Assembly (NCBI GenBank): GCA_951406725.2
Contig: OX597821.1
Location: 72,230,001 to 72,294,000 of the forward strand
DNA: 64,000 bases
Source of the DNA: Octopus vulgaris
Lineage: Eukaryota
Direction: 5' to 3'
Each line of letters begins with the position of its first letter. Within the stretch, counting starts at the first letter, position 1. The position numbers are program-made. Positions 8,053 to 49,000 of this stretch are shown here, one piece after another.

Positions 8053-11000
8053 AGAATCTTTAATATGCCGGACTAAGTGCATAGCGGTATTTCGTCTGCC
8101 GTTACGTTTGGAAGTTCAAATTCCGCCGAGGTCGACTTTGCCTTTCATCCTTTCGGCGTCGATAAATTAAGGACCAGTTACGCACTGGGGTCGATGTAAT
8201 CGACTTAATCCGTTTGTCTGTCCTTGTTTGTCCCCTCTGTGTTTAGTCTCTTGTGGGTAGTAAAGAAATAGGTATTTCGTCTGCCGCTACGTTCTCAGTT
8301 CAAATTCCCCCGAGGTCGACTTTTCCGTTCATCCTTTCGGAGTCGATGAAGTACTAGTTACATACTGGGGTCGATGTGATCGAATGCCTCCCCCTCCCCA
8401 ATATTTTCTGGCCTTGTGCCTATTGAGGAAAGGATTATTATTGTAATTATTATTTTGGTTTTGGCTCACGTTCGGTCATATTCCTGACAGGAATTATGTG
8501 GTTAGCGGGTTACTACCTCTAACCTTAGGGATACACAAGTTTTCACCAATCTTCCAAGTGCTTAGAACCCTCATGACAATCCTTCCTGTCCATAAGAGAC
8601 AAACTTTTGTAAGAGCATTACAGGGCTTTCTACTCCTGATGAACAATCGAAAGAGTATCAAGCGAAATGGACGCTGACATATAGTTATGTTCTGCGTTCA
8701 AATACGTCAAGGCCCATATTTGCCGTTCATCCTTGTAATGCTGAAATGCATAAATAGTAGGGCTGTTTTACTAGAAATTATCATTAATATTAATTAGAGC
8801 AACAGAATACAATAATAGCCCCTCGTGGACATCACAAGACAATCGCCCTCGATTGAGCCTTATGTGCTATTTTCTACACATAAGAAATAGAAAACCAAAC
8901 AAGACCAGTCAGACACCAGACATCACACAATATTTCGTCTAAAATTCCATTGTCATCTAAAAAGGCAATAGCCAATCGTCCCTCGGCAGCTCAAAGCCTC
9001 CCGTCTTACAAATAAAACCAGACATTGTATAGTCCAATCCCAGCTGCATTCTGCTAGGTCGTCGTACCTGGAAAGCCTTTGACCATTCAACAACTACATC
9101 AGAGTATCCTGACGCTTCGCAACGACACATTCGATAATACAGTTTCCATTTGCAACATACTTTTTATGGATCTTTTCACTCACAAATTTCATTTCGTTTA
9201 ATTTTCGTCCAATTCATTGCAATTTCTGTATATTGATGTACGTTTTCTATGCTAATTATAGAAACGAAATTCCTTTTCGCCATAAAAAAAATAAATATAA
9301 TGTTAATAGCATTTAAAATTTGTAAATTTTGAGTAATTTTAGCCAATCGAAAACCACAAACCAATCGGTGCCAGTTTCCATGGTAACAAGTCGAGGTAGT
9401 GTCTGCTTTCCAAGCAATTCTACTTTACACGTCTGTTGTTGTCCTGTCACCACCTCACTCACCATTCGGCCTTTTTATATTCTTTACATGCCTCTTATAA
9501 CATTTCGCATGATTTCATTTATTATGACACGTAGGGAGACGGTCTCTCATAAATCTGTAGAGATTATATTCAAAAGTAAAACTTATTAAAACTTCTGTCG
9601 ACGTCGTCGTAATGTTTTGTCTAACGTTGTCGTGTTGCTATGCACAGCTACCACGCAGAAAATGCCAGCTTTTCAAATCCTACTTCATTATTCGATGAAA
9701 ATAATCAACCTTTAAGCCTCTGTAACATGCTTCTCAAGTTTTTCTGCAACAATTGAATAACAACACCAAATTCAGTGTGAGAAATTTCATTAATATACCA
9801 AGTTTGAAAATTTTCAGACAATTTTAAAATATCAGTAACTGTGAACCACACAGAAAAGATGCATTTTTATAAGTTCTCCTGGTTCTTTTTCACAATAAAA
9901 GTGGTTTTCATTAAAAGCGATTCATCACATGCGTAGCTGTGAGTCTTTCTCTGTGTGTTTGTGTACAAAGTCGTGGTTACGTCGTTTACATAAACATCTT
10001 TTTTATAGTTGTTTATTTATGTTGGAAAAGCAAACAGATTTCAACGATATGTATTTTTGTTTGTATGAAGCAAAATACGAAGCAGATATATTTTAAGTTA
10101 TTTTTATTTTTATACTTAAACGGCAAATCCCTATATGTTATGCGTGACAAAGTGATGTTAAACATTTAAATAAAAATTTTTAGCAGTTAATAATTCGATA
10201 TTCAGAAAAAGGTTTAATATACATGTTAAAATACAAATATAACAAAATTAATGAAAGTATAATTTTAAAATATTTTATAAATCTGTTCTGCTTTTGCTAA
10301 TATAGATGTGGTGAGCTTCAATTTATAAATTTCTATTTTCTATGAATTCAATTAAAAGACTATTTTACTTGAAGGTGAGTTTACACTCCATCGGCGTTTA
10401 TGACGCATCTTTAATTAGGCTAGATTCCCGGGATCCACTTCCGCTCACCCCTTTCGGCAGGCGACACCTGTTGGGGTATATATAAGAAAGAGGGTCCGTG
10501 ACAGGGGACAGTGAAGTTTTTGCTTCCGCTTCGCCAACACACACTGACCACGAAAGCAATTTTTCCAACCGAATTCTCCAAGAAAATACTGATTTCAGAC
10601 ACCAAACAGCCGAAACTTTATCGATTAACTGAAAAAGAGATAAAGAACGAAATTTATTTTTAAATGGATCAAATGGCAAATACTGAGAATTCTTTACAGG
10701 TGGAAATTGCTGATAATCAACAAACTAATGAAACTCCGATTAATGATTTACCTGAAAGCTCCAATGGAAATGCGCCACGAAAAACAGACTGGAATTTCAG
10801 CGAAGAACAAATTGTTGAGATTTTCAAGCGAAAATATCAACCTGATAACTTTACCTATGAAAACGAATTACTTTATCGTCAGAAAACAGGTATGTTTATG
10901 TTATACATTAACCGACGATTGATGTTAAGCGAATATATACTAAACATTGCCGTAGTTTATATGCACCGATTCTATATGTATAACTCCTTCCACCAGTTTA

Positions 11001-46000: not shown

Positions 46001-49000
46001 CAAATTCCCCCGAGGTCGACTTTGCCGTTCATCCTTTCGGAGTCGATGAAGTACTAGTTACACACTGGGGTCGATGTAATCGAATGCCCCCCCTCTCCAA
46101 TAATTTCTGGCCTAGTACCTATTGAGGAAAGGATTATTATTGTAATTATCATTTTGGTTTGGCTCACGTTCGGTCATATTCCTGACAGGAATTATGTGGT
46201 TAGCGGGTTACTACCTCTAACCTTAGGGATACACAAGTTTTCACCAATCTTCCAAGTGCTTAGAACTCTCATGACAATCTTTCCTGTCCATAAGAGACAA
46301 ACTTTCGTAAGAGCACTACAGGGCTTTCTACTCCAAATGAACAATCGAAAGAGTATCAAGCGAAATTGACGCTGCCATATAGTTATGTTCTGCGTTCAAA
46401 TACGTCAAGGCCCATATTTGCCGTTCATCCTTGTAATGCTGAGAAGCATAAATAGTAGACTGTTTTACTAGAAATTATCATTAATATTAATTAGAGCAAC
46501 AGAATGCAATAATAGCCCTTCGTGGACATCACAAGACAATCGCCCTCGATTGAGCCTTATGTGCTATTTTCTACACATAACAAATAGAAAACCAAACAAG
46601 ACCAGTCAGACACCAGACATCACACAATATTTCGTCTAAATTTCCATTGTCATCTAAATAGGCAATAGCCAATCGTCCCTCAGCAGCTCAAAGCCTCCCG
46701 TCTTACAAATAAAACCAGACATTGTATAGTCCACTCCCAGCTGCATTCTGCTAGGTCGTCGTACCTGGAAAGCCTTTGGCCATTCAACAACTACATCAGA
46801 GTATCCTGACGCTTCGCAACGACACATTCGATAATGCAGTTTCCATTTGCAACATACTTTTTATGGATCTTTTCACTCACAAATTTCATTTCGTTTAATT
46901 TTCGTCCAATTCATTGCAATTTCTGAGTATTGATGTACGTTTTCTATGCTAATTATAGAAACGAAATTCCTTTTCGCCATAAAAAAAATAAATATAATGT
47001 TAATAGCATTTAAAATTTGTAAATTTTGAGTAATTTTAGCCAATCGAAAACCACAAACACATCGGTGCCAGTTTCCATGGTAACAAGTCGAGGTAGTGTC
47101 TGCTTTCCAAGCAGATCTACTTTACACGTGTGTTGTTGTCCTGTCGCCACCTCACTCACCATTTGGCCTTTTTATATTCTTTACATGCCTCTTACAACAT
47201 TTCGCATGATTTCATTCATTAAAATTTATTAATGACACGTAGGGAGACGGTCTCACATAAATCTGTAGAGATTATATTCAAAAGTAAAACTTATTAAAAC
47301 TTCTGTCGACGTCGTCGTAATGTTTTGTCTAACGTTGTCGTGTTGCTATCGGCTTTTCAAATCCTACTTCATTATTCGATGAAAATAATCAGCCTTTAAG
47401 CCTCTATAACATGCTTCTCAAATTTTTCTGCAACAATTGAATAACAACACTAAATTCAGTGTGAGAAATTTCATTAATATACCAAGTTTGAAAATTTTCA
47501 GACAATTTAAAAATATCAGTAACTGTGAACCACACAGAAAAGATGCATTTTTATAAGTTCTCCTGGTTCTTTTTCACAATAAAAGTGGTTTTCATTAAAA
47601 GCGATTCATCACATGCGTAGCTGTGGGTATTTCTCTGTGTGTTTGTGTGCAACGTCGTGGTTAAGTCGTTTACATAAACATCTTTTTTATTGTTGTTTAT
47701 TTATGTTGGAAAAGCAAACAGATTTCAACGATATGTATTTTTGTTTGTATGAAGAAGCCCTTTTAGTTTGTTTAAACTTCGATTTTCGTATTACTCTACC
47801 CCAATCTCATATTATCAAAGTATGTAACATAATCAAACTCGAAGATAAATTAGTGAAAATAATTAACCAGTTTGCTACATGCTGTCTGGTTTTAACGAAG
47901 TTCTCTCTCAAATATACAGCCAAAACTATCGCATCTATCTGTATACATTTGTTTATTGAATGGGGTAACTGGAAGATTCCGTTGTCTTCCCAACAAAATC
48001 CATGGCATTTTTATATGGACACTTCTCTCAATGAACAATTATTGGATGAATTAGTGGTTGATTTCCTTGAGGTACTTCACAACACAGACACAAATTTCAA
48101 GAAACAGTTTCCCTTTTTAAACAAATCCGTGTCGCCAAGTAACACGGACAACGCGCTGAAAACTGACTAACATATTTCTACACTCTATAGAAATTACACA
48201 GAAAACCTAACAAATGATAATAGTGAGCGAAGTCCATACTCTTTCCTACATAGTAAAGTAAGAATTGAACTTATTCTCTATGGCTGTGCATATGTAACAC
48301 AACCTGCTGCTACATTCAGGTGTGTTTTAATGTATATAAAATGTAAATAGACATCAATTTCTCACTGTTCTTTATTGCAACAGTTCACATGTATTTTATT
48401 CATATTAACTTTACACAGTTGAACATGGAAACATTTCTCTTTAATTCTCAATGTTCTACACTCACATTCCTCTACATACAAACACTATATCATCTCAATC
48501 GACGTCTCATTCATTTTTATTATATTTCATCAATTTTTATACGACTCTTAATTTGCTAATTATTTCCATATAAATCGTGAGTTTTTTACTTTTATTTTTA
48601 ACCATTCAGATTTACAACTAACATTTCATTACATTTAATTTGTCATAAACTTTTGTATTATAGAATAAATAATTTTTTTTTAAATTACAAAATCTTTTTT
48701 CTCCTTATTTATTTCATTAATTTCTATTCTTTATTCATAAGTCTTCGTTATTATACAAGTATCAAGGTGATAAGCGCGAATTAATTTTCAGTTATTTTTA
48801 AGTAAATAGAAATATAAACAAGTGAATGTTTAGAGTAATCGATATAGTACAGTTGATGTTGTCTCTACTTTCGGAAATTTAAAGTACACGTAAAATGAAT
48901 TTTGTTGATTCAAAATTGTGCCGCGTGCTGTCTTAACTCAGATATGAATTAAAGATTTGTAATCAGATAAAAATCTGTTTAAACATATGTAACTTTTTTT

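Follow-up and report, generated by a model that had tools for sequence, protein, structure and literature searches.

The window, the whole stretch of 64,000 nucleotides of Octopus vulgaris DNA that was analysed, harbors a head-to-tail array of ∼13-16-kb units with unit identities of 90.8-98.3% by self-BLAST. The units carry cyclin-T-like genes with a single coding exon; three copies are intact and a fourth is truncated.

1..56986, + strand: tandem array (self-BLAST; the final matching stretch ends at 56986)
10477..10486, + strand: copy 1 TATA-like word TATATATAAG, 187 bp before the ATG, with ACAGTGAAG at 10508 (motif match only)
10664..11590, + strand: copy 1, intact 308-aa cyclin-T-like ORF (ATG-to-stop ORF, Pfam, tblastn)
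12084..12089, + strand: copy 1 first AATAAA, +494 from the stop (motif only)
21753..22796, no strand: (TACA/CA)n compound microsatellite of ∼1 kb, found once per unit (further instances: 5956-6943, 35586-36056, and 43760-44805)
26263..26272, + strand: copy 2 TATA-like word, 187 bp before the ATG, with ACAGTGAAG at 26294 (motif match)
26450..27376, + strand: copy 2, intact 308-aa ORF (ATG-to-stop ORF, Pfam, tblastn)
27967..27972, + strand: copy 2 first AATAAA, +591 from the stop (motif)
39477..39486, + strand: copy 3 TATA-like word, 196 bp before the ATG, with ACAGTGAAG at 39508 (motif match)
39673..40599, + strand: copy 3, intact 308-aa ORF (differs from copies 2 and 1 by 9-11 amino acids)
41170..41175, + strand: copy 3 first AATAAA, +571 from the stop (motif)
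41291..43753, no strand: unit-3-only sequence, in place of ∼7.5 kb of the other units (self-BLAST, with the microsatellite as the one long self-match)
47739..48170, + strand: copy 4, 5'-truncated pseudogene, codons 166-308 plus stop (self-BLAST, tblastn)
56987..64000, no strand: right flank outside the array, with higher G+C (0.39-0.45), dispersed ∼150-bp repeats, and short tandem repeats

Organization of the array

A sequence-only reading had described a tandem array of three intact 927-bp ORFs and one deleted copy, cut by the left edge of the window in the middle of a unit. The ORF listing, tblastn, and self-BLAST confirm the array, and the window, which is free of N letters, does open mid-unit. 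The array begins with an incomplete unit at the left edge and continues with two full units of ∼15.8 kb and one of ∼13.2 kb; the last unit is rearranged and shortened. The self-BLAST pairs 1-8018 with 15807-23844 (97.7% identity), 8006-11996 with 23802-27782 (97.2%), 11994-19688 with 27877-35578 (97.2%), 23181-28088 with 36401-41290 (94.8%), and 35592-39071 with 44351-47754 (90.8%). The stops of successive cyclin ORFs are spaced at 15786, 13223, and 7571 bp. Kilobase-scale head-to-tail units, one cyclin ORF apiece, and high identity are features of the macrosatellite type, and all are present here.

Copy 2 is the query for all protein comparisons. Against the window, tblastn returns four credible cyclin segments: the full copies at 100, 98.7, and 97.1% identity, and the copy 4 segment (47739-48167), which matches residues 166-308 at 95.1%. 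A fifth match (E 0.37) is noise. Copy 4 is contained in a 185-aa ORF at 47613-48170 on the + strand; the tblastn match starts at residue 166, and therefore the first ∼42 codons of this ORF are fortuitous upstream sequence. In the truncation, ∼1.09 kb is deleted between two TATGAAG words (microhomology) that lie in unit 1 at positions ∼10064-10070 and 11165-11171, with the copy 4 junction near 47744-47750. Codons 1-165 were lost in this way, together with their 5' leader and the promoter region.

Each intact copy had also been credited with its own TATA and initiator promoter and a candidate poly(A) signal. The words themselves are present, as motif matches only: in all three intact copies the TATA-like GGGGTATATATAAG word lies 187-196 bp 5' of the ATG, the ACAGTGAAG word follows ∼31 bp 3' of it, and the first AATAAA is found 494-591 nt past the stop. 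A TAA stop immediately precedes the ATG in each of these copies. The earlier description of a single uninterrupted coding ORF per kilobase-scale unit is borne out. The 3' region of copy 2 is ∼97 bp longer than that of copies 1 and 4.

The (TACA/CA)n microsatellite gives rise to spurious long ORFs rich in C/V/M/Y and T/H/Y/I. Apart from the cyclin ORFs, 128 stop-to-stop ORFs reach 70 aa and are not of low complexity; a Pfam scan covered 85 of them, taking each part of the unit once together with the unique stretches. None of the 85 non-cyclin ORFs harbors a credible Pfam family, and the ORFs of the unit-3-only sequence (41291..43753) have no Pfam match; the cyclin gene is therefore the sole recognisable gene per unit. 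In Octopus sinensis, the 90% protein cluster contains eight member sequences, all located on one contig.

Identity, fold, and relatives of the encoded protein

Assignment of the protein as cyclin-T-like is consistent across Pfam, the best PDB matches, and the Foldseek ranking. In Pfam, all three intact copies match Cyclin_N (PF00134, 1e-10) and CycT2-like_C (PF21797, 3e-35). A phmmer search of the PDB ranks cyclin T1 (2e-44) and T2 (1.5e-37) ahead of cyclin K (5e-13) and cyclin C (∼5e-4), and Foldseek likewise places T1/T2 first (TM 0.85-0.91, E 3e-15 to 3e-12), followed by K (2e-9), C (2e-7), L2 (2.5e-7), and H (1e-5). Cyclin K, the CDK12/13 partner, is thus the next-best family by both sequence and fold (TM 0.78-0.85), but its sequence match falls short of that of cyclin T by ∼30 orders of magnitude, and identity in the structural alignment is only ∼20%.

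The AF2 model of the 308-aa protein (pLDDT 80.8, pTM 0.79) is ordered over residues ∼44-290, with pLDDT >90 over most of 70-290, and disordered at 1-39 and 296-308. This model bears out the cyclin-box-only architecture that had been proposed: two cyclin folds and little else, flanked by short disordered termini. Past the Pfam match to the second fold (277 of 308), the ORF continues for 31 residues, and the stop is conserved in all copies. The canonical cyclin T C-terminal region consists of a coiled coil, a His-rich CTD-binding segment, and a PEST sequence. This long region is absent from the octopus gene, and among the scanned ORFs of the window no downstream ORF with a family match was found. 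Canonical metazoan cyclin Ts (human CCNT1/CCNT2 and those of molluscs, a brachiopod, and arthropods) share with the octopus protein the two folds, including the CycT2-like C-terminal fold. They differ in that they are 700-1400 aa long, whereas the octopus protein has 308 aa, a ∼40-aa disordered N-terminal extension, and a multi-copy tandem gene with a single coding exon.

The only named close relatives are in O. sinensis (97%) and O. bimaculoides (88%), both annotated "cyclin-T1-like". Full-length intact orthologues are present in O. bimaculoides and in the representative library (protein P0003, 80%). Automatic NCBI annotation has thus already recorded orthologues of a family of which no description had been known, while a literature search found no paper on the short octopus cyclin-T-like family. 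Beyond these, the best named matches, among the matches listed from 1.84 billion representatives, are cyclin Ts of molluscs, a brachiopod, arthropods, and vertebrates. The family is fast-evolving, as had been suspected: it is 31-34% identical to every canonical cyclin T, whereas canonical cyclin T boxes are ∼70-77% identical to a Lingula query over the best BLASTP stretch. Of the positions invariant across 23 canonical bilaterian cyclin Ts, the octopus protein keeps 33 of 67.

In a 46-row maximum-likelihood tree, a 95/82 split groups the octopus clade with molluscs, a brachiopod, and nemerteans on a stem of ∼9 changes per column; an AU test keeps the vertebrate alternative (p 0.114). In a 60-row tree the clade joins other long branches, a placement flagged with a long-branch warning. 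A canonical octopus cyclin T is not among the 120 listed of 1365 profile matches, so that we infer rather than observe the status of paralogue. The suggested retro-derivation did not find support: the parental multi-exon gene is not among the same 120 listed matches, a poly(A) remnant is not visible, and in the window copies AATAAA is followed by a T-run and no A-tract. Poly(A) and target-site marks may have decayed, because the stem branch is long.

Another protein confined to the cyclin boxes is P0011, a library protein of 257 aa. In common with the octopus clade it has several derived states (LPQSH in place of HPHTH, Q50R, Q56E, H154Q, and a C-terminal FPxL near the end), and it is changed at 10 of 10 checked canonical positions. 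Its identity is 34% to the octopus protein and 31% to a canonical cyclin T from a mollusc. The 60-row tree places P0011 with the octopus clade, in a join that carries a long-branch warning.

HEXIM groove, CDK9 contacts, and AFF4 surface

Human residue numbers are taken from the PDB phmmer alignment; the short clade comprises 6 rows and the canonical set 23. Functional roles come from the human studies cited. The octopus protein is changed at nine positions invariant in 23/23 canonical rows (Q46L, Q50R, Q56E, I59L, L133F, H154Q, K168D, D169K, and Y175N) and at F176Q, a position that is F in 20/23. These changes recur in 6/6 short-clade rows, or 5/6 at Q50 and K168. The HEXIM-binding network is described as Q46, Q50, Q56, N60, H154, Y175, and T179 with K168 and D169 (PMC4227133). 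Within this set, which derives from human mutagenesis, one of nine canonical-invariant positions is kept (N60), compared with 32 of the 58 other invariant positions (p 0.027), pointing to a modest enrichment of losses in the predicted HEXIM groove. T179 is also kept in the octopus protein, but it is not canonical-invariant. The human mutants Y175S/E and N60K lose HEXIM1 binding and keep CDK9 binding (PMC4226998; PMC4227133).

Residues kept in the octopus protein include N60, R68, K93, E137, L170, C200, L203, and F241. The AFF4 hot spots W207, W210, W221, and Y224 (residues from PMC3589825) are identical in 6/6 rows, and L163-V164-R165 is replaced by I-I-K in the short clade (I-I-S in P0003). 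The AFF4/SEC scaffold contact surface thus appears to be retained, as a predicted contact.

Binding of CDK9 itself is doubtful. Residues that serve as a proxy for it are mixed, with R68, K93, E137, C200, and L203 kept and Q97, V107, T143, and T149 changed. For human cyclin T1, CycT1(1-280) is stated to be enough for CDK9 binding (PMC8648303 citing Garber 1998) and phosphorylation of T143 and T149 to promote it in human cells (PMC8648303); these columns hold Cys and Arg/Gln/His in the octopus clade. In all 6 short-clade rows the V107 column is Glu and the Q97 column is Lys, and an acidic residue at V107 occurs in none of the 23 canonical rows. PMC4226998 describes a human V107E mutant that binds neither CDK9 nor HEXIM1, associates strongly with AFF4, and represses transcription of HIV, and a Q97K mutant whose binding to both CDK9 and HEXIM1 is weakened. 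The earlier idea of an alternative P-TEFb, with a putative role in the germline or early embryo, needs qualifying, because the groove is replaced and the residues at Q97 and V107 match those of human mutants in which CDK9 binding is weakened or abolished, respectively.

These residues would suit a natural decoy, an equivalent of CycT1-V107E that would not bind CDK9, would remain bound to AFF/SEC, and would titrate elongation complexes and dampen transcription at a dose set by copy number. The replacement of T143 and T149 and the retained AFF4 hot spots are in line with this. The decoy is nonetheless unlikely, since the invariant cyclin-box Arg/Lys/Glu (R68, K93, and E137) and L203 are kept. 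In cyclin A-CDK2, the Lys/Glu pair touches the kinase. Further points against the decoy are that the effect of a single residue is not transferable across 67% sequence divergence, that the same Glu occurs in P0085 and P0121, two divergent cyclin-T-like proteins, and that octopus CDK9 may have co-varied.

Constraint, interpretation, and known systems

A dead array, in which recent copies of a decaying cyclin T duplicate are open by chance, would account for the one truncated copy in four and for the dN/dS of 0.96, 0.53, and 0.54 among window copies; these ratios rest on only 5-16 differences, so that purifying selection among copies is not demonstrable from dN/dS on its own. Such decay is very improbable given the constraint on the ORF. 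A full-length open ORF is present in two named species and in P0003 at 80-88% identity, indels relative to O. bimaculoides and P0003 are confined to the disordered N-terminal extension, and the cyclin boxes (89-91% and 83-85% identical) exceed the tails (78-81% and 67-73%) in O. bimaculoides and P0003, respectively. Among the three window copies, the ORF has no indels and diverges less than the 2.6 kb upstream (0.54/1.73/1.40% versus 2.45/2.88/2.81%; Fisher p 1e-4, 0.07, and 0.018). Both folds are modelled with confidence by AF2, and all three intact copies share a conserved TATA word and leader.

Two further alternatives are hardly credible. One, which DNA alone permits, is that splicing joins the ORF to other coding exons, such as ones that encode a C-terminal region; the other is that the array is a duplication made in assembly, an error to which tandem repeats are prone. 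Against them, a TAA lies just 5' of the ATG and another ends the ORF at the same place in all copies, NCBI models of two octopus species stop at the same residue (305 and 308 aa), no other scanned ORF of the unit matches a family, and units of 15.8, 13.2, and 7.6 kb with 2-9% sequence difference and large, private indels are not what a single locus, collapsed or duplicated in assembly, would give.

Very probably the array is genuine and the gene is functional, a divergent cyclin T paralogue specific to the lineage. On balance, the best explanation overall is a probably functional, octopod-restricted cyclin T paralogue that is tandemly amplified and would act as a HEXIM-blind CDK partner; that specific mechanism, taken alone, is tentative and may well not hold. 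Each ∼13-16-kb unit has one gene, with a single coding exon and a TATA-type promoter motif of its own. The product, in which nearly all residues of the HEXIM/HIV Tat groove are replaced and the fold core, Arg/Lys/Glu, and AFF4 aromatics kept, could still engage a CDK, either CDK9 or a near relative, and dock on the AFF/super-elongation scaffold. It would not be parked in the 7SK-HEXIM complex and would have no polymerase-tail-binding tail of its own, and thus could be an unregulated, dosage-driven modulator of transcription elongation. A broader and rather unlikely proposal is that octopods, or a wider group if P0011 is a true relative, possess a dedicated minimal class of cyclin T that is 7SK-HEXIM-blind, AFF-docking, and devoid of the polymerase-tail region. 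Its dose would be set by macrosatellite copy number. The outcome would be either a burst of unrestrained CDK9 activity, for instance in germline cells or when the genome is activated, or a genome-wide brake on elongation by a natural dominant negative of the V107E type.

Animals have few transcription regulators as conserved as cyclin T, which is usually present in one or two copies; across 23 proteins that range from molluscs to vertebrates, 67 positions of the cyclin boxes do not vary. A tandemly amplified natural family that drops half of these positions, selectively loses the HEXIM groove, and lacks the C-terminal region would be a ready-made separation-of-function allele with which to study the in vivo contribution of 7SK-HEXIM control and of the cyclin T tail, and would put a core elongation factor on the list of cephalopod lineage-specific gene expansions.

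In extent, the octopus protein corresponds to engineered human CycT1(1-280), the minimal CDK9-binding construct (PMC8648303), and it naturally carries non-aromatic Asn, Glu, and Lys at the sites of the human mutants Y175S/E, V107E, and Q97K, respectively (PMC4226998 and PMC4227133). Those mutants are laboratory alleles tested in human cells, whereas the octopus changes are fixed in a natural family, accompanied by many further substitutions, and known from sequence alone.

Among mammalian systems, DUX4/D4Z4, USP17L, and TAF11L are tandem arrays of kilobase units, each with an intronless ORF and its own promoter, and are functionally defined by polymorphic copy number, by their chromatin state, and by expression in the embryo or germline. 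They belong to other gene families and another phylum than the octopus array, but share with it head-to-tail units of several kilobases, one intronless ORF with its own promoter per unit (a motif only in octopus), high identity between units, and broken copies at the array edge.

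Array layout and gene structure

The octopus stretch, whose 64,000 bases include no N, contains a genuine tandem array whose repeated gene is cyclin-T-like, intact and conserved, and encodes the cyclin boxes alone. The ORF listing gives four copies:

10664–11590, + strand: copy 1 ORF, 927 bp, ATG to stop
26450–27376, + strand: copy 2 ORF, 927 bp, ATG to stop
39673–40599, + strand: copy 3 ORF, 927 bp, ATG to stop
47613–48170, + strand: copy 4, shorter ORF

A tblastn search of the window with the copy 2 protein finds credible cyclin segments only at these four copies, the match in copy 4 being limited to residues 166–308 (47739–48167). 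Copy 4 has a deletion of ∼1.09 kb between two TATGAAG words, so that its promoter region and leader are missing along with codons 1–165. Self-BLAST of the window places the ORFs at equivalent positions in head-to-tail repeat units; together, the three analyses confirm the sequence-only reading of three intact ORFs and one deleted copy, one per unit. Two full units of ∼15.8 kb share 97–98% identity and align as follows:

1–8018 with 15807–23844
8006–11996 with 23802–27782
11994–19688 with 27877–35578

The third unit measures 13.2 kb (94.8–96.8% identity) and the last is rearranged (90.8–98%). As had been proposed, the window opens mid-unit, and the array therefore extends further left. It ends at 56986; the final 7 kb are a different, G+C-richer sequence (0.39–0.45 versus 0.32–0.40 in the array).

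A (TACA/CA)n microsatellite of compound type recurs in every unit; it spans ∼1 kb in most of them and 0.4–0.5 kb in others (5956–6943, 21753–22796, 35586–36056, 42938–43379 and 43760–44805), and these sites coincide with points at which unit lengths differ. Long ORFs rich in C/V/M/Y or T/H/Y/I, present on both strands, were rejected as genes, being microsatellite artefacts. In unit 3, ∼2.5 kb unique within the window (41291–43753) replaces ∼7.5 kb of the other units, and its ORFs have no protein-family match. A dispersed SINE-like repeat of ∼150 bp, with copies 70–80% identical in both orientations, occurs ∼7–8 times per array unit and several more times in the right flank (examples at 3232–3380, 4285–4438, 8297–8442, 19034–19182, 20087–20242, 24091–24237, 59282–59385 and 59597–59702); it yields no tRNA by ARAGORN and no Rfam match. 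The right flank also holds a purine-rich 21-bp tandem repeat (seven copies, 61169–61414) and a 62-bp tandem repeat (2.3 copies, 62517–62657).

The cyclin-T-like gene has a single coding exon, with a TAA stop immediately 5′ of the ATG in copies 1–3. The promoter and poly(A)-signal motifs ascribed earlier to each intact copy are present at like positions, as motif matches only: the word GGGGTATATATAAG lies 187–196 bp 5′ of the ATG, the word ACAGTGAAG lies ∼31 bp 3′ of that word, and the first AATAAA falls 494–591 nt past the stop. The 3′ region of copy 2 is ∼97 bases longer (27782–27877) than that of copies 1 and 4, which shifts its first AATAAA from +494 to +591.

Pfam finds no protein family in the other ORFs of the array unit, as scanned in 85 of the 128 ORFs that reach 70 aa and are not of low complexity, a set in which every part of the unit is represented once and the unique regions are included; matches to Orf78 (0.0078) and DUF2197 (0.0019) fall short of the curated cut-offs. 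A viral or transposon-borne cyclin was rejected on this absence of any family. The unit likewise gives no Rfam match at gathering thresholds and no tRNA by ARAGORN.

Family identity, relatives and origin

Every intact copy matches Pfam Cyclin_N (1e-10) and the CycT2-like C-terminal fold (3e-35). Among all PDB sequences, the best match is human cyclin T1 (2e-44, residues 41–287 on 10–254), with cyclin T2 (1.5e-37), cyclin K (5e-13) and cyclin C (about 5e-4) also matched. An AlphaFold2 model built from a 44-row alignment predicts both folds confidently (pLDDT 80.8, pTM 0.79), with disorder at residues 1–39 and 296–308, and Foldseek ranks cyclin T1 and T2 chains first (TM 0.85–0.91), then cyclins K, C, L2 and H. 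Affinity to cyclin T over K, L, C and H, judged from the PDB and Foldseek rankings rather than from a tree, supports together with Pfam the cyclin T identity first assigned to the 308-aa protein. The protein is a divergent cyclin-T-derived variant and not a plain cyclin T member, because fold and nearest family agree with cyclin T while the HEXIM groove is not conserved and no C-terminal region is present.

The named close relatives are all from octopuses. A word-indexed search returns 'cyclin-T1-like' proteins from Octopus sinensis (305 aa, 97%; its cluster has eight member sequences, on one contig) and O. bimaculoides (308 aa, 88%), and P0003, a 298-aa protein of 80% identity. These matches place the window in an octopus close to O. 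sinensis. Exhaustive phmmer over 1.84 billion representatives finds this group alone above 50% identity; the next matches are canonical cyclin Ts at 31–34%, the named ones coming from Lingula, Haliotis, Patella, Pecten, insects, ticks and vertebrates. The family had been thought undescribed, and no relevant paper was found among those listed by literature searches, judged by title and the start of the abstract, but automatic annotation already names the octopus orthologues 'cyclin-T1-like'.

P0011, a 257-aa cyclin-box-only protein located outside the window, shares derived states with the octopus short proteins (the short clade, six alignment rows), namely LPQSH for HPHTH, Q50R, Q56E and H154Q, and, like them, has an FPxL close to its C-terminal end. 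P0011 shares 34% identity with the window protein and 31% with a canonical mollusc cyclin T. By these residues, P0011 may mark a short family older and wider than the octopods.

Across 23 canonical bilaterian cyclin Ts (22 named proteins plus the search hit P0007), 67 positions in residues 41–290 are identical, and the short clade retains 33 of them. In a 60-row tree that includes distant matches, the short-clade stem measures 4.3 changes per column and the clade joins other long branches, raising a long-branch warning. A careful 46-row tree without the distant rows places the clade with molluscs, a brachiopod and nemerteans, apart from the annelid, arthropods and vertebrates (95/82 split). 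Attachment to the vertebrate branch is not rejected by the AU test (delta lnL 0.89, p 0.114); the short clade may descend from a duplication in the mollusc lineage or from a more ancient paralogue.

For the parental octopus cyclin T, a word-indexed search for longer proteins gave one fish protein only, and a five-lophotrochozoan cyclin T profile gave no named cephalopod among the 120 matches listed of 1365. Four proteins of 953–972 aa from the representative searches (P0007, P0155, P0156 and P0157) group closely together as a cyclin T clade within the molluscs in both trees, and may represent the canonical cyclin T of cephalopods. The proposed retro-derivation of the octopus gene is plausible because its CDS is uninterrupted, but has no direct support, since no A-tract, the mark of retro-insertion looked for at the window copies, follows the poly(A) signal.

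Functional surfaces

Human residue numbers were assigned through a HMMER alignment to human cyclin T1. The CDK9–cyclin T1 interface is reportedly described in the first instance by Baumli et al. in 2008; the CDK9-interface residues used here are drawn from mutagenesis papers only. Functional data come from three mutagenesis papers (PMC4227133, PMC4226998 and PMC8648303) and one structure paper (PMC3589825).

Residue states of the short clade (six rows) at functional positions, in human cyclin T1 numbering
HEXIM/Tat groove: Q46L, Q50R (Q in one row), Q56E, I59L, L133F, H154Q, K168D (G in one row), D169K, Y175N, F176Q
CDK9-related: Q97K, V107E, T143C, T149R/Q/H
Fold core: R68, K93, E137, L170, C200, L203, F241 kept
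AFF4 contact: W207, W210, W221, Y224 kept; L163-V164-R165 to I-I-K (I-I-S in P0003)

In the octopus protein the HEXIM groove is replaced, the AFF4 surface is retained and no C-terminal region follows the cyclin boxes. The changed groove positions are invariant in all 23 canonical rows except F176 (F in 20 of 23), and only N60 and T179 of the HEXIM network survive. Invariant positions are retained at one of nine sites in the groove versus 32 of 58 elsewhere (p 0.027). The mutagenesis data report that human Y175S/E and N60K lose HEXIM1 binding and keep CDK9 binding (PMC4226998, PMC4227133), that Q97K weakens binding of both CDK9 and HEXIM1 (PMC4226998), that T143/T149 phosphorylation promotes assembly (PMC8648303), and that CDK9 is no longer bound by L203P or by the E137D quadruple mutant (PMC4227133/PMC4226998/PMC8648303). 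AFF4 affinity falls 58-fold with W207A and 21-fold with W210A, according to the structure paper (PMC3589825). The P249 column is Asp in the octopus protein.

Mechanism, selection and comparison with known systems

The residue pattern suggests a protein that would still pair with a CDK and an AFF scaffold, would escape 7SK–HEXIM sequestration and would have no CTD-binding tail of its own. The His-rich region of canonical cyclin T is CTD-binding. The most likely mechanism, tentatively put forward, is that of a HEXIM-blind, dosage-driven elongation modulator that partners a CDK. The main rival, an unlikely one, makes the protein a decoy that behaves like human V107E, which loses CDK9 and HEXIM1 binding and still binds AFF4 (PMC4226998); the short clade has Glu in this column, which is acidic in none of the canonical rows. 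That Glu is not decisive, however, because two other divergent cyclin-T-like proteins carry it.

A dead array is less likely than the elongation modulator. The ORF is open and full-length across species, and the window copies show no indel columns within it and many in the flanks. Copies differ by 5, 16 and 13 nucleotides, counts too few for the Nei–Gojobori dN/dS values (0.96, 0.53 and 0.54) to decide; ORF divergence (0.54, 1.73 and 1.40%) is below that of the 2.6-kb upstream flank (2.45, 2.88 and 2.81%; Fisher p 1e-4, 0.07 and 0.018). Between species, where constraint was judged on protein sequences, the cyclin boxes are more conserved (89–91% identity in O. bimaculoides, 83–85% in P0003) than the disordered ends (78–81% and 67–73%), and all indels lie within the N-extension. 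Such a distribution is consistent with purifying selection acting on the fold. Also less likely are an assembly artefact and a gene spliced to further exons, given these constraint data, the array layout with units unequal in length and sequence, and the lack of a family match in the other unit ORFs scanned.

Canonical cyclin T has a HEXIM groove and a long C-terminal region, whereas the octopus protein has neither. The mammalian DUX4, USP17L and TAF11L genes form arrays of comparable architecture, and it is in architecture, the only aspect compared, that the octopus array resembles them.
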